From an uncultured Candidatus Saccharibacteria bacterium (GTDB lineage: Bacteria > Patescibacteriota > Dojkabacteria > J137): a stretch of DNA of 64,000 nt. Positions within the stretch are counted from its first letter, which is position 1. The number at the start of each line of letters is the position of its first letter. The stretch is taken from positions 800,859 through 864,858 of the forward strand of contig OZ246402.1 of the NCBI GenBank assembly GCA_965230975.1. The letters are read 5' to 3'. The translations under genes and the position numbers were made by a program. The notes under the pieces are model-generated. The model was not told the DNA's origin. It ran no database searches and saw only the letters and a program-made list of their open reading frames with translations. This document shows positions 17,306 to 60,580 of the stretch, in pieces.

Positions 17306-17339
17306 TTTATGGATATTAACTTGGTTGCATACTACTTTT

Positions 17340-21058: not shown

Positions 21059-21159
21059 TTATTTAGTATATTCCTAGTTACTTCTCTTGGCAATTTTTGT
21101 TTTTACGTTTTTAGTTAAGGGTAAATAGATGATATAATACATCGATCTTTTAGCAATAT

Positions 21160-21235
21160 GGTGGTTGTAGCTCAATGGTAGAGCACTCGCCTGTGGAGCG
21201 AGGTGTTGTGGGTTCGAGCCCCACCAACTACCCCA
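21160..21235 (+). tRNA. tRNA-His (anticodon GUG) with encoded G-1 and CCA
   Basis: G-1 followed by acceptor GTGGTTG/CAACTAC, anticodon arm CTCGC-CTGTGGA-GCGAG, T arm GTGGG-TTCGAGC-CCCAC, discriminator C, CCA. Confidence 0.9.
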
Positions 21236-35182: not shown

Positions 35183-35312
35183 AGAAAGAGTGAAAACTAT
35201 ATCTGTATTTATTTATATTATATTTCAGATATATAAAATACCTAGTTAATTTCAATTCAATTAATAGTTGAGAGTAACATTTAAATTAAAACAACTCTTA
35301 AATAGTGAAAAA

Positions 35313-41300: not shown

Positions 41301-44300
41301 TCAGAAACAAGTATTGTTTCTTACCACTCACTATTTGATAAAGTTTGGAGTTATGTATCTTCAGTTTACGCAAACGAAACTACAGATGCTTCAAATACAA
41401 CAAGTGCAGATACTCAAATGGTAAGCCAAATAGGGGATATTATATATTTAGGTAAAACTTCTAAATTTGATAATATCTCTTGGGACTTATCTACATTGGG
41501 TACAAATGGAATAATAAGATGGGAGTATTATAATGGTGCTTCTTGGAAAGCAATAAATAAATATTTAGGTGTATTAACTCCATCATTCACAGGAGATGGT
41601 GCAATTTCATTTGTTCCGGCTCAAGACTGGGCACAAACAACAATTAACGGAGAGGGAACATCTTATTATTACGTAAGAGGGGTAGTAACAAGAGCATTTA
41701 GCGTTGTACCAATTGGAGTTCAGTTTGCAAGTATTCCATTACTGTCTCAATTTACAAGCATTGCTAAAGCTAACAACATTTACTACTCATGGACAGAAAA
41801 CTCTGCATCTAACTACAGAGTTAGATTTTCAGCATACATATTTAATGTTGCTCCAAACACACCAACCTCATTGGGCGCTAGTGCAGTAGTAGATGGATCT
41901 CCAACAAAAAACAATCAACCCGAATTTATATTTACAACAAGTGATCTTAACTTAGGAGATACTTCAACATATACTATTCAAATTGATAACGATAGCGATT
42001 TTTCATCTCCAGTAGTAGATTACACTTCTGCATTTACATTAAATGGAGTTAGAGGCTTTGCAGTAGGGCAAGCAGTTGGTAGTGGAATTTACACTACAGG
42101 TTCGCAAGGGCAAACATTGACAGACGGAGATTATTACTGGAGAGTTAAAGCAAGTGACTTAGCAGGTTTAGAATCCGGGTTTGCAGTAGCAAACAGCGGA
42201 AGTGTTGCGTTTAAAATAGATACTGCAAACCCGGCAACAAATGCAAGCAGTATTTTAATGTTAAAAACCGCTGGTGGACCTGGAGTTAACTCTAATGGTT
42301 GGACAAATAACGCATCTCCTTATTTTTCTTGGACACCTGGTGTAGATAACGTAGGTGGTTCTGGAATTTTTGGTTATTGTGTTTATTTAGGAACAGATTC
42401 TAATGGTAATCCAGAAACTAGCAAAGGCTTGTTAGGAACATCACCTGCAACTTTGGTAGATTCAACTTGTCAATTTATAACTACAACTACATCAATTGAT
42501 TTTACCAACGCTAACTTAAAAGGTGGAACATGGCTTACAACATCTTCTAGCCCATATTATATAAACATTAAAGCTATAGATATTGTTGGTAATATATATA
42601 CAACTTCAAGTGCGCAATTTCAGTTTAGGTTTGATAACGTTGCACCAACTAACGTAGCTTTCATAAGCACCGCTGGTGGAACATTTAATAATGTAGCAGA
42701 TATGAGCTTTTCGTGGCCAACAGCAGGTTTAAACACATCATCAGATGCAACATCTGGAGTATTGGGTTGGCAATATGCAATTAATATAACAAGTGGTAGT
42801 TGGCAAGGCACAACAGATAGTACAGAACTAGACGAGAGATATATACCAACAAGTGATAGCAATTACAGCTTAACAAATGTTCAAGATGCAGGTTCTATTG
42901 TGACTGGTAGCAATACAATTTACTTTAGAACAATTGACCAGGCGGGGAATTATTCATCTGAGGGCACAGTTAGAACAGGTGTATTGCAGTTTGGTGGAGC
43001 TGCACCAATGTTCCCACCACTTTCTCAAGTAACAGTAACACCATCCGTGGGAGTATCAAATAATTACGAATTATCTTGGCCAGAAGCAATGTCTGGATCT
43101 GGTGGAGATATTTCAAATTATTACTATATGATAAATATAACGCCACCAACGGTTTTAAGTACTATAACAACAAACCCTGCAACATTTATAAACAACAACT
43201 TAAGTTTAGGAGTTACTGCAAGATCTTTACCAAACGTAAATAGAGGAACGAATACCGTATATGTTGTAGCAGTAGACGAAGATGGACATTATTCACCATC
43301 TAATTATATTACCGGAACATTTGAATTGAATTCAACAGAGCCGGACAATCCAACACAACTTACAGCATCAGATGCATCTATAAAATCTGAAAACAGATGG
43401 ATGGTTACATTAACATGGATTAAACCAGCATACGAAGGTGCAGGAAACTTAACATACTTGGTACATAGATCTTTAGATGGAGTAAGCTTTAGCTTGGTAG
43501 GTACAACTACAAGTTTGTCTTATGTAGATAACCCAGATGAAAGTAGACTATATTATTACAAAGTTTATGCAAAAGATGGAGCTAACCAAACATCGTCCGG
43601 TACAAATGCTGTTTCTGAAACGCCAACAGGTCGGTGGACAGTACCTCCTACACTAGACAATGAGCCAGAAGTTACAAATATTACTACTAAGAAAGCAAAA
43701 ATATCTTGGACAACATCAAGAAAAGCAGATTCTAAAGTAGCTTATGGTACAGAAAGTGGAGTTTACTTCCCGGTTGAACCTAGTACATCTGATTTAACCC
43801 CGGCACACGAAATAAATTTAAATGGTTTACAACCAAGTACTCAATACTATTATATTGCAAGATGGACAGACGAAGATGGTAATACAGGTTCGTCAACAGA
43901 ATATAGCTTTGTAACACAACCTGCCCCAAGTGTTAAAGATGTAGTTGCAAGTAACGTTGGTTTAACATCTGCTATATTAAGATACACAACCTTAGGTGCA
44001 AGCAAAGTAAGGATATTTTATGGAACAACAACATCTTTTGGAGGTTTGAAAGAGGTTTCTACTTCTACTAGCGAAACAGTTCAAACTACAGAAATAACAG
44101 GATTGTTAGATGGTACAAAATACTATTATAGAATAGATACTTTAGATGAAGAATCAGCTCAATACGAAGGAACAATTTTAGACTTTACAACACTACCTAG
44201 ACCAAAAATTAATAATGTTAGAGTACAGCAAGTTAGAAATACCGCACAGTCAACTGTTTTAATAAGCTGGCAAACAAATACGGAAGTATCTTCTATAGTT

Positions 44301-44876: not shown

Positions 44877-44877
44877 A

Positions 44878-47838
44878 ATGGGTGACCCAATAATAAAAAT
44901 ACAAAACATTAATAAAGTATTCACAGTTGGTGATCAAGATTTGCATATTTTAAAAGATATATCTGTAGATATTGAGAGAGACGATTTCGCAATCATTTTG
45001 GGGCCATCAGGATGCGGAAAATCCACTTTATTACATACAATTATTGGATTAGAAGAGCCTACATCTGGTAGTTTAATATTTAGTGGGGTAGATATTTACA
45101 AAGGTAAAACTGATGATGATAGAAGTGTTTTTAGAAAAACACATATTGGAATGATTTACCAACAACCAAACTGGGTTAAAGCCCTACATGTTTTAGATAA
45201 TGTAGCGTTACCTTTAGAAATGCTTGGAGAAGATAAAGAATCTGCCAGAAAAAAAGCATTGTCTGCATTAGGATCTGTATCTATGGATGAGTGGGCATAT
45301 CACTTACCAACATCTCTATCTTCTGGTCAACAACAAAGAATTGCACTTGCCCGGGCTTTAATTACAGACCCAGAAGTAATAATTGCAGATGAGCCAACAG
45401 GAAACCTTGACTACGAAGCTGGACAAGCATTAATGAATCTTTTAAAGATTTACAACACTCACTTTAAGAAAACAGTATTAATGGTAACTCACGACTTGGA
45501 ATACCTATCTTTTGCCAAAACTGCCATTAAACTTTTTGATGGTAAATTAGTTGGTGTTTATCAAGATGGAGATAAAGATGAACTGCAACATAATACTAAG
45601 ACTAAAAAACTACCTGAAATGGCACTACCAGATATTGCAGTAAATACTGCAGCTATTGCTAAGGCTCAAGATGAAAAATCACAAGCAAATGGTGTTGGGA
45701 AACTTAACTCAAGTAAAGTTGGACAGGATGACAAGCAAGATTTAGCAGACTTTAATAAAGGTTTCTTTCAAAAGCAATCTTTAGAAAAAGTTGCTACAAG
45801 TGGACCTAAAATTAAGCCAAAAACTCCTTTAGCACAAAAGATTATAAGGATTATAAAAAACATACCTTCTAATATAAAAGGTGCCTTAATACTTAGTAAA
45901 CAGATCTTTGTAATAGTATTACTTTTAACTATTTACTTAATAAAGCTAATCATAGCTACAGTAGTAAAAAGATTAATTCCAGGTTTCATTATAAATGTTA
46001 TTGGAAAGCCATTAATGCAAATAGATCTATTAGTAACAAAATGGATTGATCCAAGCTTTTCAAAAACAATTCCGAAAATTGAATTAATAAGTATTGCAGT
46101 TAAGAACATGCTTGCAAAAAAAACTCGAACTGCAGTTACAATTGGTGGTATGGCTGTAGGTATTGCTGCAATTGTATTTTTGGTTTCACTGGGTTATGGA
46201 TTACAAGATGTAGTAATTAGTAGAGTAGCCCGGTTAGACGAGATGAAACAAGCAGACATATCTCCTCAAACAGGAGGTAATGTAAGTTTAAATGACGAAA
46301 CAATTGCTAACTTTTCTAGAATACCTAACGTATCAATGTTAATGCCGTTAATTTCCGTGGTAGGAAAAATCTCTTACCAAAACTCTGTTACAGATGTTGC
46401 AACATATGGTGTTACATCTGATTATTTAAAACAGTCTGCTGTAAAACCATCTTTCGGAACAATCTTTGAAAGCAATGAAACAGTTGTAAGTGTTAATAAA
46501 AGTGATTTAGTTGATCAAGGCAAGGTTGCAGGACTAAGTACAGAAAATGCAATTGTAAAAGTTGGTGAAAAAATTTCAGATGTTACGTTTAACATAACAA
46601 CTAATGTTTGGGCAACAGTACGCTCTGGCCCTGACTTAAAATCAGAGATTTTAGGTTTTACTAAAAGAGTAGAGGGTAATTTAACAGGCGAAGAGGTTTG
46701 GGGAGTAGAAGACAATTGGGTTAGAACAAAATATTCATTATGGAAAGAACAATCATGCTCAACTATTTATAATTTAGACTGCGCAGATGGGAAGTATTTA
46801 AAAATAAAAGACTCTCTTGGAACTCAAATACAGCAAAGTGGATATGTTTATAATGCTGATTTACAAATTTCTAATCGAAAATTAAAACCAGATAATTCAA
46901 CCGCCAATGTGTTGGGGCTATCAACAGATAGCAATGTCAAAGTTAATGGTCAAGTATTAGGTGTTTCAGATGAGCAATGGGTAGAACTACCATCCGAATC
47001 TTCAACTTCATCTTTGGAGCAAGTTACAACCATAGAGCTTTCACCTCTTGCAAAAAAAGAAGCTGTTGTAAATGTAGCAATGCTTAAAGTACTGGGAATT
47101 GAACCAAGCGAAGCAGTTGGGAAATCTTTTGCAGTATCTTATGTAGTAGTTGGTAATTTATTAAATCAAGATAACGAAAAAGTCGAATCTGCAATTTCAG
47201 ATTACAAGATTATTGGTGTTGTTCCAGAAGATAAAACTCCTTACTTTTATGTACCATTTATTGATTTAAGATCTTTAGGTATTGCTAGTTATTCTCAGTT
47301 AAAATTAGTTGTTAATGACTCTGCAAATTTAGCTGGTGTTAGAAACCAAGTAGAGAGCTTAGGTTATAATACTGTCTCTGTTTCCGATACAGTGGCTCAA
47401 ATAGAATCCTTATTTTCAACATTAAGAACGTTACTCGCATTGGTAGGGTCTGTTGCATTAGCTGTTGCATCTTTAGGAATGTTTAATACATTAACGGTAT
47501 CTTTATTAGAAAGAACTAGAGAGGTAGGGTTTTTAAGAGCTATAGGTATGACATCTTCAGAAGTTCAAGAGCTATTCTTAACAGAGTCCTTAACAATGAT
47601 GTTCTTTGGTGGGTTTGGTGGAATTTTTGCAGGGTTAGTATTTGGGAAACTAGCTAGTTTAATAGTTTCTTTGATAGCCGCCAGAGATAATGCTGGATTC
47701 TTAGATATATCAAGACTGCCTTTATCATTCTTATTAATAGTATCTGCCTTAGCATTATTGGTTGGTATTGCAACTGGAATTTACCCAGCAAGAAGAGCAA
47801 AAAAGATATCTGCACTAAATGCCTTAAGATACGAATAA
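44878..47838 (+). CDS. fused MacB-type ABC exporter (ATPase + FtsX permease) with enlarged extracytoplasmic domain
   Basis: Walker A GPSGCGKST, signature LSSGQQQR, Walker B IADEPTGNLD. This is followed by a TM helix and a ~430-aa external region including an SH3b-like stretch (WATVRSGPDLKSEILGF...WVRTKY). The FtsX C-terminus ends ALNALRYE. The ATG lies 1 nt after the giant gene's stop. Confidence 0.85.
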   Translation: MGDPIIKIQNINKVFTVGDQDLHILKDISVDIERDDFAIILGPSGCGKSTLLHTIIGLEEPTSGSLIFSGVDIYKGKTDDDRSVFRKTHIGMIYQQPNWVKALHVLDNVALPLEMLGEDKESARKKALSALGSVSMDEWAYHLPTSLSSGQQQRIALARALITDPEVIIADEPTGNLDYEAGQALMNLLKIYNTHFKKTVLMVTHDLEYLSFAKTAIKLFDGKLVGVYQDGDKDELQHNTKTKKLPEMALPDIAVNTAAIAKAQDEKSQANGVGKLNSSKVGQDDKQDLADFNKGFFQKQSLEKVATSGPKIKPKTPLAQKIIRIIKNIPSNIKGALILSKQIFVIVLLLTIYLIKLIIATVVKRLIPGFIINVIGKPLMQIDLLVTKWIDPSFSKTIPKIELISIAVKNMLAKKTRTAVTIGGMAVGIAAIVFLVSLGYGLQDVVISRVARLDEMKQADISPQTGGNVSLNDETIANFSRIPNVSMLMPLISVVGKISYQNSVTDVATYGVTSDYLKQSAVKPSFGTIFESNETVVSVNKSDLVDQGKVAGLSTENAIVKVGEKISDVTFNITTNVWATVRSGPDLKSEILGFTKRVEGNLTGEEVWGVEDNWVRTKYSLWKEQSCSTIYNLDCADGKYLKIKDSLGTQIQQSGYVYNADLQISNRKLKPDNSTANVLGLSTDSNVKVNGQVLGVSDEQWVELPSESSTSSLEQVTTIELSPLAKKEAVVNVAMLKVLGIEPSEAVGKSFAVSYVVVGNLLNQDNEKVESAISDYKIIGVVPEDKTPYFYVPFIDLRSLGIASYSQLKLVVNDSANLAGVRNQVESLGYNTVSVSDTVAQIESLFSTLRTLLALVGSVALAVASLGMFNTLTVSLLERTREVGFLRAIGMTSSEVQELFLTESLTMMFFGGFGGIFAGLVFGKLASLIVSLIAARDNAGFLDISRLPLSFLLIVSALALLVGIATGIYPARRAKKISALNALRYE

Positions 47839-50336: not shown

Positions 50337-51158
50337 ATGACAAATAAAAAAACCATTATTGCTATAGCTTTATTTTCTATAATTACCTTAATTGCTATTA
50401 TACTAATTGTAATAGTTGGTACATTAGCAGATAAAAATAATTATTCTGATAGAAACGATTCGGGATTTAATAACAATGGGTATGGGAATTATCAAAAAAA
50501 TCAGAAATCTAGTTACACAGAGCAAAACCTACCAAAATTCATTAAGGAAAATTATATTGATTTAAATTTAATTGGTTTTGTATCTCAATTTAGGTCAGAT
50601 AACGGACATGACTTTTCCGATGAGACAGCTAAGTGTTCTAGTATGAAGCATTATTTTGAATTTCCACTAGGGAAACGATTAGATGTTAACGGTCCAAATG
50701 GAATTCCTGCAGACCCGACAGCACAAAATGGTGTGCCAATATATGCACCTGTAGATGGCACAATACTGGATATTCAGTCAGAAGTATTCCCATTAGGTAA
50801 ACAGCTTCATATTCAGGTAAAAGATTATACAGATTTTAAGGTAAGATTATTTCATATTTACCCGATTATCACTTTAAAAGTTGGTCAACAAGTTAAAGCA
50901 GGTGATCAAATTGGCTTAATAAATATGGGACAAGGTACAGATATTGCAGTAGAAGCAAATATAAATTCCAATAGAAGATTTTATTCAATTTTTGAGTTAA
51001 TGACCGATCAACTATTTCAAAAATATATACAAAAAGGTGCAAGTTCTAGAGATGAATTTATACTTTCAGAGCAATATCGTAAAGAGAATCCATTAACATG
51101 TAACGGCCAACAATTTACTAATCATTCAGAAACTTGGAAAGAGTGGGTTGCATTTTAA
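50337..51158 (+). CDS. membrane-anchored LytM/M23-like protein, probably catalytically degenerate
   Basis: TM anchor, HxxxD (GHDFSD), PIYAPVDGTI, VKAGDQIG. The HxH position reads GTDIAVE. Confidence 0.45.
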   Translation: MTNKKTIIAIALFSIITLIAIILIVIVGTLADKNNYSDRNDSGFNNNGYGNYQKNQKSSYTEQNLPKFIKENYIDLNLIGFVSQFRSDNGHDFSDETAKCSSMKHYFEFPLGKRLDVNGPNGIPADPTAQNGVPIYAPVDGTILDIQSEVFPLGKQLHIQVKDYTDFKVRLFHIYPIITLKVGQQVKAGDQIGLINMGQGTDIAVEANINSNRRFYSIFELMTDQLFQKYIQKGASSRDEFILSEQYRKENPLTCNGQQFTNHSETWKEWVAF

Positions 51159-51284: not shown

Positions 51285-54200
51285 TTACTTTTGCTTTTTC
51301 TTAAATACTCCCAAGTATATTGCTATTAACAATAAAACTATAAACAAAACAGCACATAGCAATGGAACAAACCAACTATTTGTTTGAGTTTCAGTTGTAG
51401 ATTCTCCTAAAACATTTCCACCCGCATTTTCATTGCTTTGATTTGACTCATCTGTACCATTTTCATTTGATTCTTCTTCTAAAGTGTTGTCAGTTTGGTT
51501 TTGTTCTTCTTGGCTATTGCTACCTTGATTTGAGTTACCTTGCCAACTTGCACCTATACCCAAAACCGCACCATTATTAACAACAATCACAACACCTGCA
51601 GATGCAGTATCTGAATTTGAATCTGTAACATCTAACCTACAATAGTAACTACCTGGAGTTGTTGGGACAGTTGCAGTATTAGTTAAACCTGTTGCAGTTA
51701 AAGTACCACTTCCAGAACAAGCACCAGACCAAACATAGCTAAAGTTTGCATCTCCCGAAAGAACATTACCTTGCAAAGTAACTAATGTTCCTTGAGATAC
51801 GTTTGTTGATGGTGTTGCAAAAATAATTACAGATGGAAGTGTGTTATTTGCACTTACAGTTATACTAGAAGTTGCAGTATCTCCATCAGAATCTGTGACT
51901 AGCACATTACAATTATAAGATGTTGCACTTGGTGTATTTAAAACTACACTTGCTGTGTTACCACTACAAGCACCACTCCATAAATAAGAAACTATTGTAT
52001 TACCAGCCAAAACATTGCCCGAAATATCTGCAATTAAAGTAACTGGTGTACCTACAAGAACAGATGTAGACGGGTTTGCATTAATAGATACAGATGGCAA
52101 AGTGTTATTAATAACTAGTTGCGAATTAGCAGTAGTTGTATTACCTGCTTCATCTGTAATACTACATTCAATATCTAATGTTTTTGTTAGGTTAGGTAAG
52201 TCAACATTTAAATCCCCGGGGCTGAACACAGAAGGGGTACATGTTAATGACAAGTTTTCCGGATTATTTAAAACAAAATCTTCAATAGCTGGTGCAGAAT
52301 CTCCTTCATTTATTGTTAAGGTTTGTAATTCTAAAATTGGGAAAACCTTATCAATATTAGTAACAGTAGCAATTGCACTACCTAAGTTACCTGCCAAATC
52401 TGAAAATGTAAATGTGAATGTTCCATTATCATCGAATGTGAACATGTTAGATGCTCCATTGTTTGTAATTGTAACAGTCTCACTTGTACTTAAAGTTGCT
52501 ACCACACTTGTGTTTGTAGGTGTAGTTATTGAGTAAGAAATACTACCAGTTGGGGCTACTGTATCTAAAGTTACATTCCAAATCTCGCTCCAATTACTTT
52601 CATTTCCCAATTGATCTATTGCTTTTACCTGCCAATACCATGTTCCATCTGGTGCACCAACAGAAAGTATTTGAGGTAAATTTAAAGGATTTTGAGCCGG
52701 GTTAGAACTTGATGTGTTTACCCATACACCAGAATTCAAAACCCCACCAACTTGGCTTGAACTTAAAGATGCTTGAAAAACATATGTAATTGGTCCTGGA
52801 TTATTATCTGTAGAAGAATCCCAATTAAAGTAAAAATTATTGGTATTTAAATACGAGTTATGTGGCAATCCATTTGTAGGTACAGATGGAGCAGTAGTAT
52901 CTAACACAAATTCATATTGAGTTGTATTGCCTGCTACATCAAATACTACAAGAGTATTTGTTCCCTCAATAGCTCCAAAAACTCCGGGTTTTACATTATT
53001 TAAATCACTCCAAGGGTTATTACTTAAATCTTTTACAACTCCATTAATGCTTACCTTATCTATTTTATTTGCATCATAAAGTTTAAAACTAACAATCTTA
53101 AACATATTTCCATTACCAATAGAAAATGGTGTATATGAATTACCCCATGCACTTCCTTTAACATAAAAACTAGGATTAGTTATATCTATAGTAAAGTCAA
53201 AAGTCTTGGTGGTAGATATATTTCCAGCTTTATCTTGAGCATTATATTTAAGTGTGTAGTTGCCTGCTGGTAAAGGTAAATTACCTGCCATAACAGTTGC
53301 TAAATCAATGGTGTGTGTCCCACTTAAACCTGAAATACTTACACTTGTGCTTCTATACAATGTACCATTTTTGTAAATATTACCAACTATCCTATCTAAA
53401 GCCAAATTATCTGTTGAATCAATAACTAAATCCATTGTTTGATTAAATACATTAGAAGAGGGTAGTGGGCTGGTAAGCGTTACTGTTGGCTTTGTATTAT
53501 CTATATAAAACTGTCTTAAAGCTTGGCCCCAAGTAGTATTGGAGTCTAAAAATTGTGCCGAGAATACATATAATCCATCTGGTGTTAATGTTGTATTGTA
53601 CTCACAAGATTCATCTAAAGATGTACCAAGTAAATCTGCACCAGGTGCTTCTTGGCAAACAAAAACTAAGTTACCTGAACTCTCAAACGCATCTTTCCAA
53701 TACCTTAAATAGTAACTACCCATTCCATAATCATCTGTAGCTAAAGCTCTACTTGTTATTGTGCCTTTTACATAAGAATTTTCTAAGGGTGTAGGGCTTA
53801 CAATATTCACAACAGGTGCTTCGTTACCAAACATATTTACATTCATAGCCAAGGTGAAAGGACTCCAATCTGTATCCCGTCTTAAAATACCAACGCCGCT
53901 TGCACCTGAATCTGTATAAAAACCTGCATGTGTTGTATTCCAAAATACTACACCTGGTTCTGTATCTGTACCAGTTGTAGGGCTTAATGTTGCTAAACTA
54001 ACATTTAAAGAATCATATGGACCAGGCATTCCAATTGGCGAGTATCCATGTACACTTGTGTTATATGCCAAAGTTATAATTACGTTATTTGGTAAAGTTA
54101 AATTATCTAAAGAAAAATCATAAGAGATATTAAATGCATATCCATTTGTACATACACCTCTTACTGCATCAAACCATTTACCTCCAAAAGGTACATTTGT

Positions 54201-55190
54201 TGAAGGATCTGTGCAGTTAACAGCGTCATAAGATGGTCTAAAAGGGATATTTGCATTTATAGTCTTGGTTGTAATTAAACTACCTACTTTATTTGTTCCA
54301 CTTGAACTATCTACATTGTAAATGTTTAAAGTAATAGGATGAGTAAAAGAGCTACCAGGTGTAGTTACACAAGCTTCTGTAGAAGTTCTATTAGGAACCC
54401 ATGCAGAGCCACTCCAAGAAAAGTCATTTTCACAAGACCAGTTTGTTAAACTAATTTCTATAGTGCTTAGTTTTCTAAAAGAACCTGCCAAAGTAATTTG
54501 ATCACCAAATTCTTTTGTTGAAGTAGCAGCATAACCCAAGCTTGAAAATGCACCAGGGTAAACTGATGGAATACTATTATAAGTAACTACAAAAACTGTA
54601 AAGTGGTTACCAGCGAAAGTTATTGTATTATTACCAATATTTGCATTAACATCTTTAAAACTAATATTATCTTCTGAATATTTAAGTTCTGCATTATTTC
54701 CAAAAGGATTAGGCAAAGTCATTACATATTCAAATGTGTAATTTTGCATGTTTGTATTAAACTCGTAGCCTTTAGAAAAAATACCTTCTACCATTAATTC
54801 AACTTCTTTAATACTAAAAAAATTATCGCCCTGTGGTAGTTTTGTAAAAGTTATATTTACCTGATTGTTATTATAAAAAGTGTAAAGATAGTTTAATTGA
54901 ATATTACTAAAAGTTTGTGTGCCATTCGAATCAATGGAATATTGAGGCTGAATTGGTTTTGAAGCCTCGTTTAAGCCTTTTCCAGGCTGATCAACTTGTA
55001 CATTTTCTGTACTATCAACCACAGCTGGTTCTTCTTGCTGATTGTATGTTGCTGGGTAAGACGGGATATTCTCATCTGTACCACTATATTCTTCTGCAAA
55101 TAAAGGTGTTACGGGGTAAACTAAAAAGAAGGCTAAATAACTCAGTAAGCAAAAAATCTTGAGCCGGGATTTTTGAGTAATTATTCTCAT
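51285..55190 (-). CDS. 1,301-aa cell-surface protein with Ig/Fn3/PKD-like domains and C-terminal TM anchor
   Basis: Signal peptide and multiple beta-rich modules, including two PKD-like ~88-aa repeats (LPSV-x-I-x-A-x-PST...WSGACSG...TDS-x-x-DTA). An acidic N/Q/E/S linker is followed by a hydrophobic helix and a KKKQK tail. Confidence 0.8.
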   Translation of the reverse strand: MRIITQKSRLKIFCLLSYLAFFLVYPVTPLFAEEYSGTDENIPSYPATYNQQEEPAVVDSTENVQVDQPGKGLNEASKPIQPQYSIDSNGTQTFSNIQLNYLYTFYNNNQVNITFTKLPQGDNFFSIKEVELMVEGIFSKGYEFNTNMQNYTFEYVMTLPNPFGNNAELKYSEDNISFKDVNANIGNNTITFAGNHFTVFVVTYNSIPSVYPGAFSSLGYAATSTKEFGDQITLAGSFRKLSTIEISLTNWSCENDFSWSGSAWVPNRTSTEACVTTPGSSFTHPITLNIYNVDSSSGTNKVGSLITTKTINANIPFRPSYDAVNCTDPSTNVPFGGKWFDAVRGVCTNGYAFNISYDFSLDNLTLPNNVIITLAYNTSVHGYSPIGMPGPYDSLNVSLATLSPTTGTDTEPGVVFWNTTHAGFYTDSGASGVGILRRDTDWSPFTLAMNVNMFGNEAPVVNIVSPTPLENSYVKGTITSRALATDDYGMGSYYLRYWKDAFESSGNLVFVCQEAPGADLLGTSLDESCEYNTTLTPDGLYVFSAQFLDSNTTWGQALRQFYIDNTKPTVTLTSPLPSSNVFNQTMDLVIDSTDNLALDRIVGNIYKNGTLYRSTSVSISGLSGTHTIDLATVMAGNLPLPAGNYTLKYNAQDKAGNISTTKTFDFTIDITNPSFYVKGSAWGNSYTPFSIGNGNMFKIVSFKLYDANKIDKVSINGVVKDLSNNPWSDLNNVKPGVFGAIEGTNTLVVFDVAGNTTQYEFVLDTTAPSVPTNGLPHNSYLNTNNFYFNWDSSTDNNPGPITYVFQASLSSSQVGGVLNSGVWVNTSSSNPAQNPLNLPQILSVGAPDGTWYWQVKAIDQLGNESNWSEIWNVTLDTVAPTGSISYSITTPTNTSVVATLSTSETVTITNNGASNMFTFDDNGTFTFTFSDLAGNLGSAIATVTNIDKVFPILELQTLTINEGDSAPAIEDFVLNNPENLSLTCTPSVFSPGDLNVDLPNLTKTLDIECSITDEAGNTTTANSQLVINNTLPSVSINANPSTSVLVGTPVTLIADISGNVLAGNTIVSYLWSGACSGNTASVVLNTPSATSYNCNVLVTDSDGDTATSSITVSANNTLPSVIIFATPSTNVSQGTLVTLQGNVLSGDANFSYVWSGACSGSGTLTATGLTNTATVPTTPGSYYCRLDVTDSNSDTASAGVVIVVNNGAVLGIGASWQGNSNQGSNSQEEQNQTDNTLEEESNENGTDESNQSNENAGGNVLGESTTETQTNSWFVPLLCAVLFIVLLLIAIYLGVFKKKQK

Positions 55191-55417
55191 AATATAGGAG
55201 ATAAAGAATAAATTTATACAACAGTTTTATATAAAGTATATCACTGTTTTCTTTAAATAAAAGCCCTATAACTCAAATTGTAAAAAAATTTACCAAATAA
55301 GTAATTCCATTTTAATCTGTTTATGGTATCATTCATATAACATAATCCCACAGATGTTTATACAATTTACAAATAATTAAATTTATTTGTTTTTTTATTT
55401 TTATTGACAATTAAATT

Positions 55418-57718
55418 ATGAAACTCTTTAACCGAACTGGAAAGTACAAATTCAATAAAAGACGTGAATTTGGAAGCGAAACCAATATCTCTCCACTACC
55501 TTGGCTTCATGAAAAGCCATCAACTTTTAAGCTAGTATTTAGTAGAGTAGCAATATTCTTAACTGTGTTCTTTTGGGTTTTATACATACTCTCAATTGTC
55601 CTAAGACAAGTTGTAAACTCTGCAGGTAGAGGTTATGACTTTACTTTAGAAGCATTTGCCTATGCAAGTGTGGTAACATTTCTAACATTTTCTGCATTAA
55701 TGTATTTAATATCTAGGCTAGGAGCATTTGAAAGATTCTTAAGCCATGTTAGAGTTCCACACTCAGTACTTGAAAAACATTTTAGTGAAAATAAATCAGA
55801 GATAACAGTATTGGTACCAAGCTATGATGAAGAGCCAAGCGTAATTAGAAAAACATTGCTTTCTGCAGCACTTCAAGAGTACCCCGAAAAGAGAGTAGTA
55901 CTATTACTAGACGACAAGCCTTTTCCAACTGACCCTAAGGTATTAAACAGATTGAATGAAACAAGAGAGATTGCTAAAGATATAAACACATTGTTAAAAG
56001 AACCTTTCAAAAGATTTGAAAAATCTTATTCAGAATTTACTAAAACAATATCTAGTAAAAAAAGTGCTACTAATAAAGATATTCAGTTAATCGAAAAAGA
56101 GTACGAATGGGCTGCACATTTTTTAAATAATTTAGCTGAATCAGAAAAAATTGAAGACCATGTTGATGTATTCTTTAAAGAGCAAGTATTACTTGGATTA
56201 TCTTACGATTTAAGTTTGGTAGCAAAAGCATTAAAAGCATCTAGCAATGATGGAGCAAAAATATCTCTAGAAAGAATTGATCAACTTTATCAAAGACTTT
56301 TATGGATTTTTAAATGTGAAGTTTCATATTTTGAAAGAAAAAAATATGTATCTTTATCACACGAAGCAAATAAAGCTATGAACCTAAACTCTTATATAGG
56401 GTTAATGGGTGGAACATATACAATAGAGGCAACTCCGGATGGGAACATACTTTTACCTTCTTCAGAGAAATCAGAAGGTGAGAAAATTACTATTAAAGAC
56501 TCAGAGTTCTTACTAACCTTGGATGCAGATTCAATATTACTTAGAGACTATTGCTTAAGACTTGTATACTTTTTACAAGAACCAGGCAACGAAAGAGTGG
56601 CAGTAACTCAAACACCCTATTCATCTTTTAGAGGAGCGTTTACGCGAATAGAAAGAATATCTGCTGCAACAACTGACATTCAACATATTTTGCACCAAGG
56701 CATGACTAAATTTAACGCAACCTTTTGGGTTGGTGCAAACGCAGTTATTAGAAAGAAAGCTGTAGAAGATATTGTGGAGAAAGAGTGGATTGGTGGTTTT
56801 GAGATAAAAAGATACATCCAAGATAGAACAGTAATTGAAGATACAGAATCTAGCATTGACTTAGCTAAACATGGTTGGAAGTTAGTTAACTATCCAGAAA
56901 GACTAAGTTACAGTGCTACACCGCCAGATTTTGGGTCACTTGTTATTCAAAGAAGAAGGTGGGCTAATGGCGGATTATTAATATTGCCAAAACTATGGAG
57001 CGTAATAAGTGAAAGAAAAAAAAGAAACGAAAATGTATCTTTAATGGAGATATTAATCAGAATAAACTACATGGCATCTATTGCCTGGTCAAGTTTGGGG
57101 CTACTATTCTTACTTGCATATCCATTTAATGGACAACTTTTAAGTACATTAGTTTTATTAACTGCATTACCGTACTTTATAGCTCAAGCAATAGATTTAA
57201 AATATTGTAGATACAATTATAGAGATATTTTAGGAATTTATGGTTTTAACTTAATATTACTACCCGTTAACTTGGCAGGAGTTTTAAAATCAATAGAACA
57301 AACACTTACCGGAAAGAAAATTCCATTTGCAAGAACACCAAAGATTAAAAACAGAACTGCCACAGGATTACTTTATGTTGCAGCACCATTAGGAATTGTA
57401 TTATTCTCAATTCTTACTTTTTGGAGAAATGTATTTGAACAAAACTGGGGAAACGCTTTATTTGCTGGCTTTAACGCTTTAGCCGCTGTTTGGGCAATTT
57501 CATCTTATATGGGAATTGGAAACTTCTTAACAGACTTTTGGTTAGGTATAACAAATTGGCTTTACGTAGAAGAGAAACCTAAAAAAGCAAAAACGGTTGC
57601 AAAGCCAGAAAAAGAACTAGACTGGAAAGCAGTTTTATACCACGGAGAAAGTGATGGTATTGTGCCATACACTTATTTAAAAAACTTAGTTGTTAATAAT
57701 GTTAAAGAATCAAAATGA
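55418..57718 (+). CDS. processive family-2 glycosyltransferase (cellulose/chitin/PNAG-synthase-like), membrane embedded
   Basis: Motifs VVLLLDDKP (DD), LTLDADS (DxD), VIEDTESSIDL (TED-like) and QRRRWANGG (Q-x-x-R-W), with TM helices on both sides of the catalytic domain. Confidence 0.8.
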   Translation: MKLFNRTGKYKFNKRREFGSETNISPLPWLHEKPSTFKLVFSRVAIFLTVFFWVLYILSIVLRQVVNSAGRGYDFTLEAFAYASVVTFLTFSALMYLISRLGAFERFLSHVRVPHSVLEKHFSENKSEITVLVPSYDEEPSVIRKTLLSAALQEYPEKRVVLLLDDKPFPTDPKVLNRLNETREIAKDINTLLKEPFKRFEKSYSEFTKTISSKKSATNKDIQLIEKEYEWAAHFLNNLAESEKIEDHVDVFFKEQVLLGLSYDLSLVAKALKASSNDGAKISLERIDQLYQRLLWIFKCEVSYFERKKYVSLSHEANKAMNLNSYIGLMGGTYTIEATPDGNILLPSSEKSEGEKITIKDSEFLLTLDADSILLRDYCLRLVYFLQEPGNERVAVTQTPYSSFRGAFTRIERISAATTDIQHILHQGMTKFNATFWVGANAVIRKKAVEDIVEKEWIGGFEIKRYIQDRTVIEDTESSIDLAKHGWKLVNYPERLSYSATPPDFGSLVIQRRRWANGGLLILPKLWSVISERKKRNENVSLMEILIRINYMASIAWSSLGLLFLLAYPFNGQLLSTLVLLTALPYFIAQAIDLKYCRYNYRDILGIYGFNLILLPVNLAGVLKSIEQTLTGKKIPFARTPKIKNRTATGLLYVAAPLGIVLFSILTFWRNVFEQNWGNALFAGFNALAAVWAISSYMGIGNFLTDFWLGITNWLYVEEKPKKAKTVAKPEKELDWKAVLYHGESDGIVPYTYLKNLVVNNVKESK

Positions 57719-59319
57719 GAAAATTAAAAAAAGAAAAACTAACACAAACAACCACTCCTCAAAGAAGATTATCTTTATTTAGAGTTTTAATTGCTGTTTT
57801 AATATCAGGAGCTAGCATTTATTATGTTGCAACTAATTGGATCGATCTTAAAGATAAAGTTATAGAGATAGTTATTGCAAGTTCTACCAGCACTCAGTTT
57901 TATGCACCTTATGTAGATGTCACCGCAACTCCAACATTTGAGTTTGAAAAACTTGGAAATACCACTTCTAAAAATGTAGTTTTATCTTTTATTGTCGCAA
58001 GTAAAGAAGATGCTTGCTTACCAACATGGGGCACAGCATATAATTTAGATCAAGCAAGCGTAGGTTTAGACCTAGACAGAAGAATTGCAAGACTTAGGCA
58101 ATTAGGTGGAGATATCTCTATATCTTTTGGCGGACTGTTAAATAATGAGCTAGCAGTTGGTTGCACAGATTTAGATAAATTAAAGCTTGCTTATAAATCT
58201 GTAATCGAGAAATATAATGTATTCACATTAGATTTAGACATAGAAGGAAATGCATTGAATGATACATCATCTAACATAAGAAGAGCAGAGGCTTTGTATG
58301 CTTTACAACAAGAGTACAAACAAGATAATAAAAACCTAGCTATTTGGTTAACATTGCCGGTCACAACTAATGGGTTAACAGAAGCAGGCACAAATTTTGT
58401 TTCCACTATGCTTAATTACAATGTAGATATTGCAGGAGTTAATGCTATGACTATGAACTTTGGAGATAGTAAAGATAGCGATACATCTATGGCACAAGCT
58501 TCTATCAAGTCGCTAAATGAAACTCATAGACAACTTGGAATATTATATAGACAATCCGGAACAAGTCTAAGTAGCACCTCATTGTGGAAAAAAATAGGAG
58601 CTACACCAATGATTGGGCAAAATGATTTCTCTAAAGAGGTATTTCGTTTATCAGATGCGAAAACTCTAAATGAATATATACTTTCTCAAGGTATTATTAG
58701 AACTTCAATGTGGTCTATTAATAGAGATAGACAGTGTGGAGAAAACTATGCAAATGTTAACCAGGTTTCTGATTCTTGTAGTGGTACAGAGCAAAACGCT
58801 TTAGATTATTCAGTTGCATTAGCAAATGGATTGACTGGTAACTTTATTGTAAACCAAAACAATACTACCAAAGAGAGTTCAGATAAGGAGGTATTAATTT
58901 CAGATGATCCAGAAAATAGTCCTTACAGAATTTGGGGACCAACAGATGTTTATATTGCTGGTACAAAAGTTGTATGGAAACGGAATGTTTACCAGGCAAA
59001 ATGGTGGACTCAAGGTGAAAACCCAGATAACCCTGTACTTCAAGCATGGCAAACTCCATGGCAATTAATTGGGCCTGTGTTACCCGGAGAAAAACCAGTT
59101 GAGCAACCAACTTTGCCAGATGGAACTTATCCGGAATGGGATAGTAAAGCTGAGTACCAAGCTGGTGATAGGATATTATTTAACAAAGTTCCTTTCCAAG
59201 CAAAGTGGTGGACACATGCAGATAATCCAAGTGTTTCTATTGCCAACCCCGCTATTTCGCCATGGGTTCAATTAAACATAACTCAAATTGAAGAGATTTT
59301 AAAAAGCCAAAACAAATAG
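57715..59319 (+). CDS. GH18 glycoside hydrolase (chitinase-like) with two C-terminal CBM5/12-type modules, membrane anchored
   Basis: TM anchor and the GH18 catalytic signature FTLDLDIEG (DxDxE). Duplicated modules read YIAGTKVVWKRNVYQAKWWTQGENP and YQAGDRILFNKVPFQAKWWTHADNP. ATGA overlap with the GT2 gene. Confidence 0.75.
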   Translation: MRKLKKEKLTQTTTPQRRLSLFRVLIAVLISGASIYYVATNWIDLKDKVIEIVIASSTSTQFYAPYVDVTATPTFEFEKLGNTTSKNVVLSFIVASKEDACLPTWGTAYNLDQASVGLDLDRRIARLRQLGGDISISFGGLLNNELAVGCTDLDKLKLAYKSVIEKYNVFTLDLDIEGNALNDTSSNIRRAEALYALQQEYKQDNKNLAIWLTLPVTTNGLTEAGTNFVSTMLNYNVDIAGVNAMTMNFGDSKDSDTSMAQASIKSLNETHRQLGILYRQSGTSLSSTSLWKKIGATPMIGQNDFSKEVFRLSDAKTLNEYILSQGIIRTSMWSINRDRQCGENYANVNQVSDSCSGTEQNALDYSVALANGLTGNFIVNQNNTTKESSDKEVLISDDPENSPYRIWGPTDVYIAGTKVVWKRNVYQAKWWTQGENPDNPVLQAWQTPWQLIGPVLPGEKPVEQPTLPDGTYPEWDSKAEYQAGDRILFNKVPFQAKWWTHADNPSVSIANPAISPWVQLNITQIEEILKSQNK

Positions 59320-59342
59320 ATAATAAAAATTGGCTAGCAAAA

Positions 59343-59367
59343 CAGCCCCTTTCGGGGCTGTTTTTTT
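59343..59367. terminator. rho-independent terminator (usable from both strands)
   Basis: CAGCCCC-TTTC-GGGGCTG followed by T7. A4 upstream provides a U tract for the convergent minus-strand gene. Confidence 0.75.
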
Positions 59368-59794: not shown

Positions 59795-60580
59795 TTAATT
59801 AACAATATCTTCTCCTATGCCTGGCATATAACATAATGTATTTTGAGTAATTGGGACCCCACCGCATACACCTTGCATATAAATGCTAGACATTTTATTA
59901 ACAATCTCTTTAGAAAAAATATTTGGACATAATAACCCGTTACTTCCATTCATATGCAAATTATAGTGAATATGAGTGCCAGTTTTTGGATCGCTACTAA
60001 ACTTTGGCATTATTGCAATTACATCTCCTGCTTTAACTTCTTGACCCTCTTCTACTTTTATATATTTTTTATAGTAATCTGCATTTGTTTTGCATCTTAA
60101 TCCATCAAAAGGCTCAATACTGTAATCTAAAGATACAGGAACACCGTTTAAACTGGCAAAACTTACAGATACATCAAACTTATCATGTGTTCCCAAGTCA
60201 AAACATGGTTGAACCCTTGTTATTCGTCCATCTACGGGTGTTATTATTTCAACCTCATATGGAGCATTATTATTTGTAAAGTTTATGTGGGCACCAGAGT
60301 GTGGGCAACTTGTGTTTAATCCCATAAACGGTGTTGTGCTTGCAATGTATTTATAATCTGATTCTTTAACTATAAATAAATCTGTTGGTTTATTTACAAA
60401 TGTTTTTATGCTTGGCAAATCACTTCCAAATATAGTGGTGGAAATATCATAGCTAATATTTTTTGATTTTGAGAGTGCTATTAAAAGTATAGAAAGTGGA
60501 ACCAAAACAAATACAGTTATTATTGCAATGAGGATGTATTTTTTTGTGTTAGGTGTTTTCAAATATTTATTAGTAAACAC
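59795..60580 (-). CDS. membrane-anchored LytM/M23-like protein (HxH retained)
   Basis: GTG start and a TM anchor. ITPVDGRITRV, VKAGDVIA and GTHIHYNLH; a paralog of ORF 50337-51158. Confidence 0.45.
   Translation of the reverse strand: MFTNKYLKTPNTKKYILIAIITVFVLVPLSILLIALSKSKNISYDISTTIFGSDLPSIKTFVNKPTDLFIVKESDYKYIASTTPFMGLNTSCPHSGAHINFTNNNAPYEVEIITPVDGRITRVQPCFDLGTHDKFDVSVSFASLNGVPVSLDYSIEPFDGLRCKTNADYYKKYIKVEEGQEVKAGDVIAIMPKFSSDPKTGTHIHYNLHMNGSNGLLCPNIFSKEIVNKMSSIYMQGVCGGVPITQNTLCYMPGIGEDIVN

Follow-up and report, generated by a model that had tools for sequence, protein, structure and literature searches.

A Conserved Gene Pair Encoding a Cellulose Synthase-Like Glycosyltransferase and a Membrane-Anchored GH18 Chitinase-Type Protein, with a Proposed Role in Making a Chitin-Like Surface Polymer

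Organization of the Locus

We studied a 64,000-nucleotide stretch (the window) of contig OZ246402.1 from an uncultured Candidatus Saccharibacteria bacterium. The ORF list of the window contains two same-strand (+) genes, 55418-57718 (766 aa) and 57715-59319 (534 aa), which a preliminary description of this DNA had proposed to be an overlapping operon; the ORFs and their overlap were confirmed. The features of the locus are:

55418..57718, + strand: gene of a membrane-embedded, processive-type GT2 synthase with cellulose-synthase-like architecture, 766 aa
57715..59319, + strand: gene of a membrane-anchored GH18 chitinase-type protein with two C-terminal CBM5/12 modules, 534 aa
57715..57718, + strand: ATGA stop/start overlap, the junction reading aaaATGAga
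55191..55417, + strand: upstream intergenic region, common to the operon and a divergent gene (gene layout)
59339..59364, strand (.): intrinsic terminator (G+C-rich stem of 11 bp, T-run; terminator scan)

The overlap of the GT2 stop codon with the GH18 start codon implies that translation of the two genes is probably coupled. The divergent neighbor encodes a 1301-aa Big/PKD surface protein, and the region between them is the presumed site of the operon promoter; a promoter scan there returned one weak sigma-70-like site (55337-55366, 9/12) that was not above shuffles. The terminator is bidirectional and common to the GH18 gene and a convergent SWIB gene. The GT2-GH18 pair is an isolated bicistronic operon closed by this terminator. 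Pfam scans of the neighbors found no deacetylase or export partner within ~8 kb either side of the pair, in agreement with the preliminary description, and no chitin-uptake or catabolic gene among the window neighbors.

The GT2 Synthase

The 766-aa protein matched the Pfam family Glyco_trans_2_3 (1.3e-34). Conservation of its motifs was judged in a family alignment of 31 sequences.

55523..55744, + strand: two N-terminal TM helices (aa 36-109; AF2 secondary structure)
55901..55915, + strand: LLLDD (aa 162-166); invariant in the family alignment, aligns to the BcsA DDG region
55934..56311, + strand: four-helix insertion of ~125 aa (aa 173-298) in the GT-A domain between DD and KAMNLN
56372..56389, + strand: KAMNLN (aa 319-324); K319, A320, M321, N322 and N324 invariant, L323 nearly so
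56519..56530, + strand: LDAD (aa 368-371), DxD metal/UDP-binding motif; invariant, aligns to BcsA DAD
56834..56848, + strand: IEDTE (aa 473-477); invariant, aligns to BcsA TEDAET
56948..56962, + strand: QRRRW (aa 511-515), acceptor-binding Q-x-x-R-W motif; invariant in the 31-sequence alignment, aligns to BcsA QRGRW
57317..57358, + strand: KIPFARTPKIKNRT (aa 634-647), conserved flexible loop (alignment and AF2 model)

All of the processive GT2 motifs claimed earlier (DD, LDAD, EDTE and QRRRW) were located and were invariant in the 31 sequences, D369 and D371 among their residues. From the alignments, D165 and D166 are the predicted UDP-binding aspartates and E474-D475 the likely counterpart of the catalytic-base "TED", the equivalent triplet being I-E-D. 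We take KAMNLN to resemble the "KAGN(L/M)N" motif of BcsA/CesA. The loop at aa 634-647, in which K634, I635, F637-K642, R646 and T647 were invariant and pLDDT was low at 635-645, presumably resembles the FxVTxK motif of the BcsA gating loop.

Based on its K/R-rich N-terminus, the GT2 probably has an N-in topology with a cytoplasmic GT domain. This domain lies between the N- and C-terminal TM helices, a fold common to the BcsA/CesA/HAS/CHS superfamily, and in the model the C-terminal TM bundle would form a translocation channel. The four-helix insertion is family-specific: it was modeled by AF2 as confident helices, was skipped by the BcsA alignments, and was kept in relatives at 35-50 % identity, aligning as a single stretch. 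Structure and homology together indicate that the GT2 is a BcsA-like processive-type membrane beta-glycosyltransferase.

The GH18-CBM Partner

The features of the second protein are:

57763..57840, + strand: juxtamembrane motif RRLSxxRV, then a single TM helix (aa 17-42; conservation and model helix 21-40)
57892..58824, + strand: GH18 catalytic (beta/alpha)8 domain (aa 60-370; PDB homology and fold)
58228..58248, + strand: LDLDIEG (aa 172-178), DxDxE motif with D173, D175 and E177; invariant in 31/31 sequences
58924..59064, + strand: CBM5/12 module 1 (aa ~404-450; YQAKWWTQGENP; PF02839, PDB chitinase CBM matches at 406-469)
59134..59265, + strand: CBM5/12 module 2 (aa 474-517; FQAKWWTHADNP; best PF02839 stretch 474-517, PDB 6z40 at 470-521)

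A K/R-rich N-terminus (7 of the first 20 residues are K or R) precedes one hydrophobic helix (24-42), and all four Cys of the protein are invariant in the family, which suggests that the protein is extracytoplasmic. The helix is probably a signal-anchor, and the RRLSxxRV/TM segment, in which L19, S20 and R23 were nearly invariant in the family alignment, is a candidate site of contact with the synthase.

Pfam PF00704 (GH18) gave no match to the window protein at E<=0.01. Its assignment to GH18 is based on PDB homology (9buf, 1.8e-49; Pyrococcus ChiA, 2dsk, 7e-24), on fold, and on the PF00704 matches on record for many orthologues. Foldseek searches gave TM scores of 0.90, to 9buf, and 0.81-0.84, and all 50 matches listed were GH18 chitinases. 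The domain belongs to the minimal subfamily without the chitinase insertion domain (PF-ChiA / "Clade I"). It has the DxDxE, SxGG and Cys pattern of the minimal chitinases Pyrococcus furiosus ChiA AD2 and Streptomyces venezuelae Chitinase 1 (9buf), the latter at 34 % identity. Those two enzymes are secreted, catabolic and carry CBM2 or other modules, whereas the cassette GH18 is anchored in the membrane, shows the conserved RRLSxxRV motif beside its TM helix and is firmly tied to a synthase gene. Clade I enzymes, the closest solved clade, are active on 4MU-chitooligosaccharides with mixed endo/exo activity. The window GH18 has F249 where 28 of the 31 relatives have the catalytic-site Tyr (M-x-Y), a substitution that may lower its hydrolytic rate.

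PF02839 matched the protein over two stretches (42.2 bits versus a cut-off of 26.2), and the aromatic motifs YQAKWW and FQAKWW include W430, W431, W498 and W499, which are invariant in the family. The earlier reading of a TM-anchored GH18 enzyme with two CBM5/12-like repeats was upheld: the partner is of the chitinase type and its modules are chitin-binding.

Conservation and Distribution of the Gene Pair

The GH18-CBM gene was directly downstream of the GT2 gene in 79 of 80 genome loci, which range from 30 to 72 % GC and span four phyla, and the pair recurred at 42 % identity (locus L085). Of the 75 related loci scored for this junction, at least 45 have a stop/start overlap of 1 or 4 nt, and in most others the two genes are within 20 nt of each other. 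No third conserved gene was found beside the pair across the 80 loci. Comparison with a sister strain gave dN/dS values of 0.064 and 0.036 for the two genes, both of which are under purifying selection. Based on the synteny, the conserved overlap and the selection on both genes, the GT2 and GH18-CBM proteins are one functional unit, paired far beyond chance, and the earlier claim of a coupled synthase and hydrolase was borne out. In a mirror-tree comparison the two genes correlated only moderately (Spearman 0.64, Pearson 0.32), the distances being saturated and the ORF calls noisy. One natural single-chain fusion, GT2-TM-GH18-CBMx2, was found (P0247). This fusion is a singleton on a 6-kb metagenome contig, and a frameshift across the overlapping stop/start could be an artefactual source of it.

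Carriers of the cassette include many CPR classes, Microbacteriaceae, Ktedonobacteria, one Arthrobacter plasmid and mobilizable Lactococcus (dairy) plasmids. Within CPR the cassette is old and broadly distributed, and both genes seem to have been transferred together, by horizontal exchange, to Microbacteriaceae, Ktedonobacteria and the Lactococcus/Arthrobacter plasmids. Public data hold thousands of cassette sequences, and we found no published description of a GT2-GH18 cassette in the literature; this two-gene synthase-chitinase cassette is strictly conserved yet uncharacterized. The system had been called unusual for bacteria. That is not so of the genes, but it fits the proposed product, as to our knowledge bacteria are not known to produce a chitin-like surface polymer of this kind.

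Relationship to Known Polysaccharide Systems

Profile searches with the GT2 matched BcsA only, its nearest relatives in sequence and fold were BcsA, CesA and CslF6, and its best NCBIfam match was CelA. The GT2 was rejected as a BcsA equivalog: it missed the BcsA-type curated cut-offs widely (TIGR03030, 85.9 versus 699.1 bits; PRK11498, 39.5 versus 992 bits), Pfam found no PilZ domain in it, and no BcsB gene is adjacent. No BcsB- or BcsZ-type domain was present among the neighbors scanned, and the only conserved neighbor is the GH18-CBM gene. Also rejected were assignments as a PgaC/IcaA PNAG synthase (TIGR03937, 53.9 versus 422.3 bits), as NodC (TIGR04242, 21.7 versus 550 bits) and as a chitin synthase, judged by the Pfam Chitin_synth_1/2 gathering score together with CHS-type fold and motifs.

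The Bcs system, the best profile and fold match, likewise pairs a processive GT2 embedded in the membrane (motifs D, DxD, (T)ED and QxxRW) with an extracytoplasmic carbohydrate binder anchored by a TM segment and with its cognate hydrolase. However, the cassette GT2 is only 15-19 % identical to it and has the 125-aa helical insertion in its GT-A domain, and the cassette is without PilZ and BcsB. The Bcs hydrolase is a GH8, whereas in the cassette a GH18, with GlcNAc-specific chemistry, is joined to the binder in one protein, and a polymer built from glucose is an unlikely product of the cassette. PNAG systems (PgaCD/PgaB, IcaAD/IcaB; Streptomyces MatAB) also combine a GT2 for a GlcNAc homopolymer with product-specific processing enzymes, and CE4 fusions among relatives of the cassette GT2 resemble the logic of MatB and PgaB. 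Unlike the CE4/GH153 or dispersin-type enzymes of those systems, the cassette partner is a beta-1,4-specific chitinase-type GH18 with CBM5/12, which argues for a beta-1,4 over a beta-1,6 linkage. Eukaryotic-type CHS and NodC share with the cassette GT2 the GT2 family, the identical QRRRW pentapeptide and the proposed reaction from UDP-GlcNAc to beta-1,4-GlcNAc; division-1 CHS is present in some Proteobacteria (PMC5122149).

The cassette has the operon organization and synteny of a synthase-dependent EPS system, and its hydrolase is presumably specific for the product. The c-di-GMP receptor and outer-membrane export component of such systems (Bcs, Pga, Pel, Alg) are absent from the window and the conserved pair; no outer-membrane porin is expected, because all carriers belong to monoderm-type lineages.

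More distant GT2 relatives, at 35-47 % identity, included CE4 deacetylase fusions in six clusters and LCP ligase fusions in two, as well as fusions to Acyl_transf_3, DMFase-like amidase and EAL domains. The gene of one relative is flanked by a GH75 chitosanase-family gene on one side and a DMFase-like amidase on the other. The EAL fusions and a neighboring GGDEF gene were seen in relatives only, not in the window or the conserved pair, and at loci L083 and L086-L088 the relatives stand alone, without a GlcNAc-related neighbor. The CE4, GH75 and GH18 partners of the relatives speak for polymers of N-acetyl- or amino-sugars and against glucans.

Proposed Product and Alternative Explanations

Substrate-assisted catalysis by GH18 enzymes depends on a 2-acetamido group in subsite -1. 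As the hydrolase needs such a sugar, the partner fold is of the chitinase type and the partners of the relatives are CE4, GH75, LCP and EAL, a GlcNAc polymer made and trimmed by the cassette is the best inference. Against this reading, the GT2 is nearest to glucan synthases and not to any known GlcNAc polymerase, at an identity (15-19 %) from which donor specificity is unreadable.

The GT2 could instead make cellulose or another beta-glucan, with the GH18 not acting on that product but cutting GlcNAc-containing peptidoglycan for passage through the thick monoderm wall, and the CBM5/12 modules binding the glucan, an explanation that we consider unlikely. It would account for the BcsA, CesA and CslF6 relatives and the CelA match, and for the KAxNLN, F(F/W)xG and FxxTxK-like motifs, which resemble those of cellulose synthases. 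CBM5/12 modules are able to bind cellulose too, and another minimal GH18 of this kind, E. coli ChiA, carries the annotation chitinase/lysozyme. However, a glucan fits poorly with the widely missed cellulose-synthase cut-offs (85.9 versus 699 bits), the lack of PilZ and of BcsB- or BcsZ-type domains among the neighbors scanned, the amino-sugar partners of the relatives, and the GH18 fold matches, which among the 50 listed were chitinases only. Moreover, BcsA-like synthases can make N-acetylhexosamine polymers, as in Listeria PssC.

It is distinctly improbable, in our view, that the pair generates soluble chito-oligosaccharides, the tethered chitinase cutting the GlcNAc chain of the synthase at once into short oligomers that are released as signals or as molecules of cell-cell or host interaction, with no structural polymer. 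The obligatory coupling of a hydrolase with an intact DxDxE motif to the synthase, the mixed endo/exo activity of Clade I enzymes and the precedent of NodC and chitooligosaccharide signaling (discussed in PMC5122149) are consistent with such a role, but the full BcsA-like TM bundle is typical of long-chain translocating synthases, two CBM5/12 modules favor an insoluble or crystalline polymer, the fusion of relatives to LCP ligases implies a polymer attached to the wall, and the cassette is common to free-living and epibiotic carriers. CPR metagenomic studies have read GH18 as a capacity for chitin degradation (PMC5581439, PMC9868632), and on pCIS6 ISS1 has replaced the GT2 and the "chitinase" persists alone, both of which would suit an ordinary catabolic or antifungal chitinase beside an unrelated exopolysaccharide GT2 by chance. 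This is highly improbable, as it is contradicted by synteny in 79 of 80 loci over four phyla and a 40-point GC range, by the conserved translational coupling, by an enzyme that is membrane-anchored with a conserved juxtamembrane motif rather than secreted, and by the lack of any further conserved gene in the 80 loci or of chitin-uptake or catabolic genes by Pfam among the window neighbors.

We rather favor, with somewhat better than even confidence, a reading of the locus as a synthase-dependent polysaccharide system that is complete with two proteins, belongs to monoderm-type bacteria, and makes and trims a chitin-like surface polymer. That proposal of the preliminary description remains the best reading, is backed by the CE4, GH75 and GH18 partners of the relatives, and concerns a product deduced from its enzymes. 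The synthase would polymerize UDP-GlcNAc into a beta-1,4-linked chitin-like chain and extrude it. The GH18-CBM partner, held by its one TM helix, would sit beside the synthase, possibly in physical contact, with its two CBM5/12 modules holding or guiding the nascent chain at the outer face and its GH18 domain trimming, releasing or remodeling it. The partner would merge the roles that BcsB and BcsZ have in the cellulose system, and the cell would end up with a chitin-like polymer on its surface or associated with its wall.

A broader scenario, which we offer tentatively as somewhat short of an even chance, is that CPR and several other monoderm lineages build a genuine chitin-like envelope or sheath polymer with a cellulose-synthase-derived GT2 that gained GlcNAc specificity independently of eukaryotic chitin synthases, with GH18-CBM5/12 as an obligatory BcsB+BcsZ co-subunit, and that horizontal transfer carried the module between epibionts and the Actinobacteria that host them and also brought it onto dairy Lactococcus plasmids. 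In that case, the GH18 enzymes regularly counted as "chitin-degrading" in CPR genomes would serve mainly in biosynthesis and not in catabolism. Cultivable carriers (Leifsonia, Lactococcus lactis UC063) make the cassette directly testable; the Lactococcus orthologue of the GT2 has QRGRW in place of QRRRW.

Organization and Conservation of the Cassette

Both overlapping open reading frames of the preliminary description were recovered with identical coordinates, and the GT2 stop codon overlaps the GH18 start codon in ATGA (junction sequence aaaATGAga). The elements of the cassette are as follows.

55418-57718, + strand: GT2 gene, 766 aa (ORF call)
57715-59319, + strand: GH18-CBM gene, 534 aa (ORF call)
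59339-59364, both strands: strong bidirectional terminator with an 11-bp stem, 3' of the GH18 stop

The upstream neighbor, encoding a 1301-aa Big/PKD surface protein, is divergent and the downstream neighbor, a SWIB gene, is convergent. Based on these orientations and the terminator after the GH18 stop, the cassette is an isolated bicistronic operon. Its local G+C (0.31-0.34) is the same as that of the remainder of the window, and a promoter scan returned zero sites exceeding shuffle expectation.

Relatives were scanned in one genome per GTDB species, which gave at least 545 stretches encoding relatives, of which the best 80 loci were kept. In 79 of these 80 best loci the GH18-CBM gene was immediately downstream of the GT2 gene, the single exception being a locus cut by a contig end. 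The 80 loci cover 0.30-0.72 G+C. Their carriers among the CPR were Saccharibacteria, Dojkabacteria, WWE3, Levyi-, Collier-, Woese- and Moranbacteria, and Parcubacteria, and further carriers were cultured Microbacteriaceae (Leifsonia, Humibacter, Cryobacterium, and Mycetocola) and Ktedonobacteria. At least 45 of 75 loci had a stop/start overlap of 1 nt (TGATG) or 4 nt (ATGA), and in the remainder the two were mostly no more than 20 nt apart. All-against-all clustering of 2147 neighboring ORFs identified no third conserved gene (deacetylase, exporter, or regulator) across the 80 loci, barring local synteny in Leifsonia. Compared with a sister strain, dN/dS was 0.064 for GT2 and 0.036 for GH18. 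The GT2-GH18 pairing is meaningful on several independent grounds, these being the synteny, the overlaps, the low dN/dS and the recurrence of the pair on plasmids. Every carrier lineage is of monoderm type, which fits a system without need for an outer-membrane exporter.

The GT2 Synthase

Pfam matched GT2 to Glyco_trans_2_3 (1.3e-34); the GT-A domain falls into two parts, residues ~120-166 and ~360-590. The motifs LLLDD (162-166), KAMNLN (319-324), LDAD (368-371), IEDTE (473-477), and QRRRW (511-515) were invariant in a 31-sequence family alignment, barring the first L of LLLDD and the nearly invariant L323; mean column identity was 70% and 237 of 766 columns were invariant. In the AlphaFold model (pLDDT 76, pTM 0.78), two TM helices at the N-terminus precede a cytoplasmic GT-A domain, which is followed by interface helices and a C-terminal TM bundle. 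A four-helix insertion between DD and KAMNLN (residues 173-298) is modeled with confidence, and a PilZ domain is absent.

PDB sequence searches with GT2, both single-sequence and profile, matched bacterial cellulose synthases only (Rhodobacter BcsA, 3e-12; E. coli BcsA, 2e-6). Foldseek ordered the structural matches of the model as BcsA, plant CesA, hyaluronan synthases, and cyclic-glucan synthase. The NCBIfam order was CelA (85.9 bits), PgaC/IcaA (53.9), BcsA PRK11498 (39.5), MdoH, and NodC (21.7). GT2 is thus nearest the cellulose synthases in both sequence and fold, yet all the listed NCBIfam scores, including those for CelA, BcsA, PgaC/IcaA and NodC, are far under the curated cut-offs (328-1131 bits). 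Together, these searches and the model place GT2 as a new, deep branch of cellulose-synthase-like processive GT2s. Membership in the chitin synthases was rejected, as the Pfam match was sub-threshold and spanned only 45 residues, and the PDB, NCBIfam and Foldseek results pointed elsewhere. That match, together with the acceptor motif QRGRW in the Lactococcus orthologue, means that the earlier argument from QRRRW as a chitin-synthase type of motif fails. The donor sugar of GT2 is not readable from sequence or model; substrate-bound structures are too distant in identity.

The GH18-CBM Partner

Pfam identified two CBM5/12 modules in the partner and the GH18 model had no match. Its assignment to GH18 comes instead from phmmer matches in the PDB, superposition of the predicted structure and structural matches. 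The phmmer matches were to 9buf, the catalytic domain of Streptomyces venezuelae Chitinase 1 (1.8e-49), and to the Pyrococcus furiosus ChiA domain (7e-24). The AF2 model (pLDDT 79) superposed on these with TM scores of 0.90 and 0.81-0.84, respectively, and all 50 of the 50 structural matches listed were GH18 chitinases. D173, D175, E177, the SFGG motif, and all four cysteines were invariant in the family. These data agree with the preliminary description of a GH18 enzyme having an intact DxDxE signature and two CBM5/12 repeats. The preprint on 9buf assigned it to a minimal "Clade I", which lacks the chitinase insertion domain, and reported endo- and exo-chitinase activity of Clade I/II domains on 4MU-chitooligosaccharides.

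The N-terminus of the partner is K/R-rich, with a nearly invariant RRLSxxRV motif followed by a single TM helix, based on which the catalytic and binding domains should be outward-facing yet tethered. The window protein has F249 where 28 of 31 relatives carry an active-site Tyr; residues 245-250 (window 58447-58464) read MTMNFG versus the family MTM(D/N)YG, with Phe in three of the 31 aligned sequences, the window protein included. In other GH18 enzymes, a Y-to-F change lowers hydrolysis and can favor transglycosylation.

Plasmid Copies

Searches of plasmids by tblastn identified GT2 on 13 mobilizable dairy plasmids of Lactococcus lactis/cremoris (54% identity) and on one Arthrobacter plasmid (56% identity). 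On pUC063A of L. lactis UC063 (locus L090, 6990-9253) the full-length GT2 ORF is intact and aligns from query residue 14; its RefSeq/PGAP annotation (WP_201013556.1) starts ~115 codons 3' of MTVRKRQFG..., which is probably the true start. The "hypothetical protein" downstream (WP_058221428.1) is the partner with both CBMs (44% identity across 516 residues). In pCIS6 of L. cremoris UC509.9 (L092, 5136-7524), ISS1 is in the place of GT2, leaving an orphan GH18-CBM "chitinase" that adjoins prtP/prsA. In Lactococcus, 24 plasmids carried the partner and only 13 carried GT2, and GT2-less plasmids such as pCIS6 are natural variants usable as controls. The system on Arthrobacter pNicSoilB8 (L091, 5131-13506) is rearranged, with GT2 between a divergent GH18-CBM5/12 gene upstream and, downstream, a second, shorter GH18 gene encoded on the opposite strand. 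At ~3 kb downstream of GT2 is a gene for a GGDEF diguanylate cyclase, and transposase genes are in the same stretch.

Wider Relatives and Evolution

An exhaustive HMMER search with GT2 against 1.84 billion cluster representatives gave 498 clusters at E<=1e-30, among which full-length relatives were 35-57% identical. Long relatives were fused to a CE4 deacetylase (six clusters), EAL (four), a LytR-CpsA-Psr (LCP) wall ligase (two), Acyl_transf_3 (one), or a DMFase-like amidase (one, the Nitrospiraceae cluster P0291). Wall attachment is suggested by the fusions to LCP, and in some lineages the partners with EAL or GGDEF point to regulation of the biofilm type. One relative, P0247, was fused to the entire TM-GH18-CBMx2 partner; it is a singleton, and a frameshift could have produced the fusion. 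A relative at 42% identity again had an overlapping GH18 gene, with three CBMs, and some relatives stand alone. At locus L089 (2221-7560), a relative at 35% identity lies between genes for a GH75 chitosanase-family protein and an amidase with the same DMFase-like (DMFA2_C) domain as in P0291, and BcsS also flanks it; L089 may encode a system for a chitosan-like polymer, including a novel deacetylase. The C-terminal extension of P0241 (Microbacterium, 1183 aa), considered as a possible GH18 domain, proved to be a P/Q-rich low-complexity tail.

The floor of GT2 identity between any two phyla is ~0.65, equal to that between CPR classes. In the NJ tree, Actinobacteria and Ktedonobacteria each formed one clade, both beside Saccharibacteria and inside the wider CPR radiation. 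This suggests transfer of the cassette from CPR-like donors to Actinobacteria and Ktedonobacteria, a direction that is not proven since the tree was midpoint-rooted without support values. The mirror-tree test of co-evolution between GT2 and GH18 gave only a moderate correlation (Pearson 0.32, Spearman 0.64) and was of little information, with distances saturated and high-GC ORF calls noisy. A cassette on a 4.27-Mb chromosome labeled "Streptomyces sp. L7" (L067, NZ_CP194644.1) nests inside the Leifsonia clade; as that genome size is atypical for Streptomyces, the record is probably mislabeled.

Proposed Function of the Cassette

In GH18 catalysis the nucleophile is the 2-acetamido group of the substrate itself, so the synthase product must hold beta-linked GlcNAc if the hydrolase acts on it. 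The chitinase-type fold and CBM5/12 modules would favor a beta-1,4 linkage. CE4, GH18 and GH75 enzymes all act on GlcNAc or GlcN polymers, and their predicted partnerships across the wider GT2 superfamily independently support a GlcNAc product. We propose that the cytoplasmic GT-A domain polymerizes UDP-GlcNAc and that the TM bundle translocates the chain. Translational coupling would place the partner in stoichiometric proximity to the synthase, where it could dock through its conserved juxtamembrane/TM segment. The CBMs would then capture the emerging chain and the GH18 domain would trim or release it, the partner combining the roles of BcsB and BcsZ, to yield a chitin-like surface or wall-proximal polymer. 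We consider this mechanism as a whole moderately probable. The chitin-like polymer of the preliminary description is thus still plausible, on the conserved pair and the GH18/CE4/GH75 partners, even though its motif argument was wrong.

Alternatively, GT2 may make a glucan while the GH18 acts on peptidoglycan. The nearest characterized relatives of GT2 do make glucans, and CBM5 modules can bind cellulose; set against the case for a GlcNAc product, we regard this as rather unlikely. That the cassette is a generator of chito-oligosaccharides, and not of a polymer, appears distinctly unlikely. The 79/80 synteny, the lack of any other conserved gene and the stop/start overlaps led us to reject chance adjacency and a purely catabolic role of the chitinase, and a catabolic chitinase beside GT2 by coincidence is highly improbable, being contradicted by the synteny data.

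To our knowledge, bacterial chitin is not known beyond Nod-factor oligomers. If a chitin-like polymer is indeed widespread in bacteria, it would add a new component to the envelope or matrix and mean that chitin synthesis had a further, independent origin, which would be notable for the biology of bacterial envelopes and of the CPR. The cassette is among the more strongly conserved large membrane proteins common to CPR classes. Its ~65% identity between phyla and its 237 invariant GT2 columns, in ~1-Mb genomes, imply an important envelope function, possibly with relevance to epibiotic attachment. Intact copies in cultivable Leifsonia and on mobilizable L. lactis plasmids (pUC063A) make the proposed GlcNAc-polymer function directly testable, L. 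lactis being a genetically tractable, food-grade carrier. The minimal two-protein design is also attractive for engineered chitin or chito-oligomer production.

No published description of the cassette was found in the full-text literature on chitin synthase in the relevant lineages, CPR GH18 or pUC063A, and databases give its proteins generic names ("glycosyltransferase family 2 protein", "chitinase", "hypothetical protein"). What Goncalves et al. (PMC5122149) describe as "bacterial chitin synthases" are division-1 CHS in Proteobacteria, a different family in a different operon. Neither chitinase nor chitin is mentioned in the Lactococcus pan-plasmidome paper, where the passages on glycosyltransferases deal with eps clusters. 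Papers on the CPR (PMC5581439, PMC9868632) count GH18 as chitin degradation; GH18 counts in CPR/Patescibacteria metagenomes may instead mean biosynthetic trimming, not carbon-cycling chitin degradation. Compared with synthase-dependent polysaccharide systems, the cassette differs in its new synthase subfamily, which has a helical insertion and lacks PilZ, its new partner type (GH18-CBM5/12), its minimal two-gene design, and its unusual phyletic spread.

Surroundings of the Cassette

The window from 49.4 to 63.5 kb is ~99% identical to the sister-strain locus (L095, Logan SRR32414321), with the exception of one tract at 53000-57300 with 85-91% identity. The tract spans the divergent promoter region and reaches on one side over the 5' half of the surface-protein gene, on the other over about three quarters of GT2; dS was 0.50 for GT2 and 0.045 for the adjacent GH18. 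It looks like a homologous-recombination import centered on the promoter and 5' end. The Big_3_2/PKD surface protein (51285-55190, - strand) has a C-terminal TM anchor and a promoter region in common with the cassette; neighbor clustering of the loci showed that this adjacency is not conserved in other lineages. Two TM-anchored M23-like peptidase paralogues (50337-51158, + strand; 59795-60580, - strand) bracket the surface protein, cassette and SWIB genes, scoring 29.6 and 26.0 bits, at or near the Pfam cut-off of 28.7. Four tRNA genes are within 6858-21232.

At 35268-47838, a giant ORF of 3202 aa carries fn3 / purple-acid-phosphatase-N-like Ig domains close to the C-terminus. After it comes a 986-aa protein in which an ABC ATPase, a MacB periplasmic core and an FtsX permease domain are fused; the two may represent a surface adhesin with a dedicated exporter. 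A sortase gene (2999-3871) and many large surface proteins are also present, consistent with a monoderm, CPR-type envelope.
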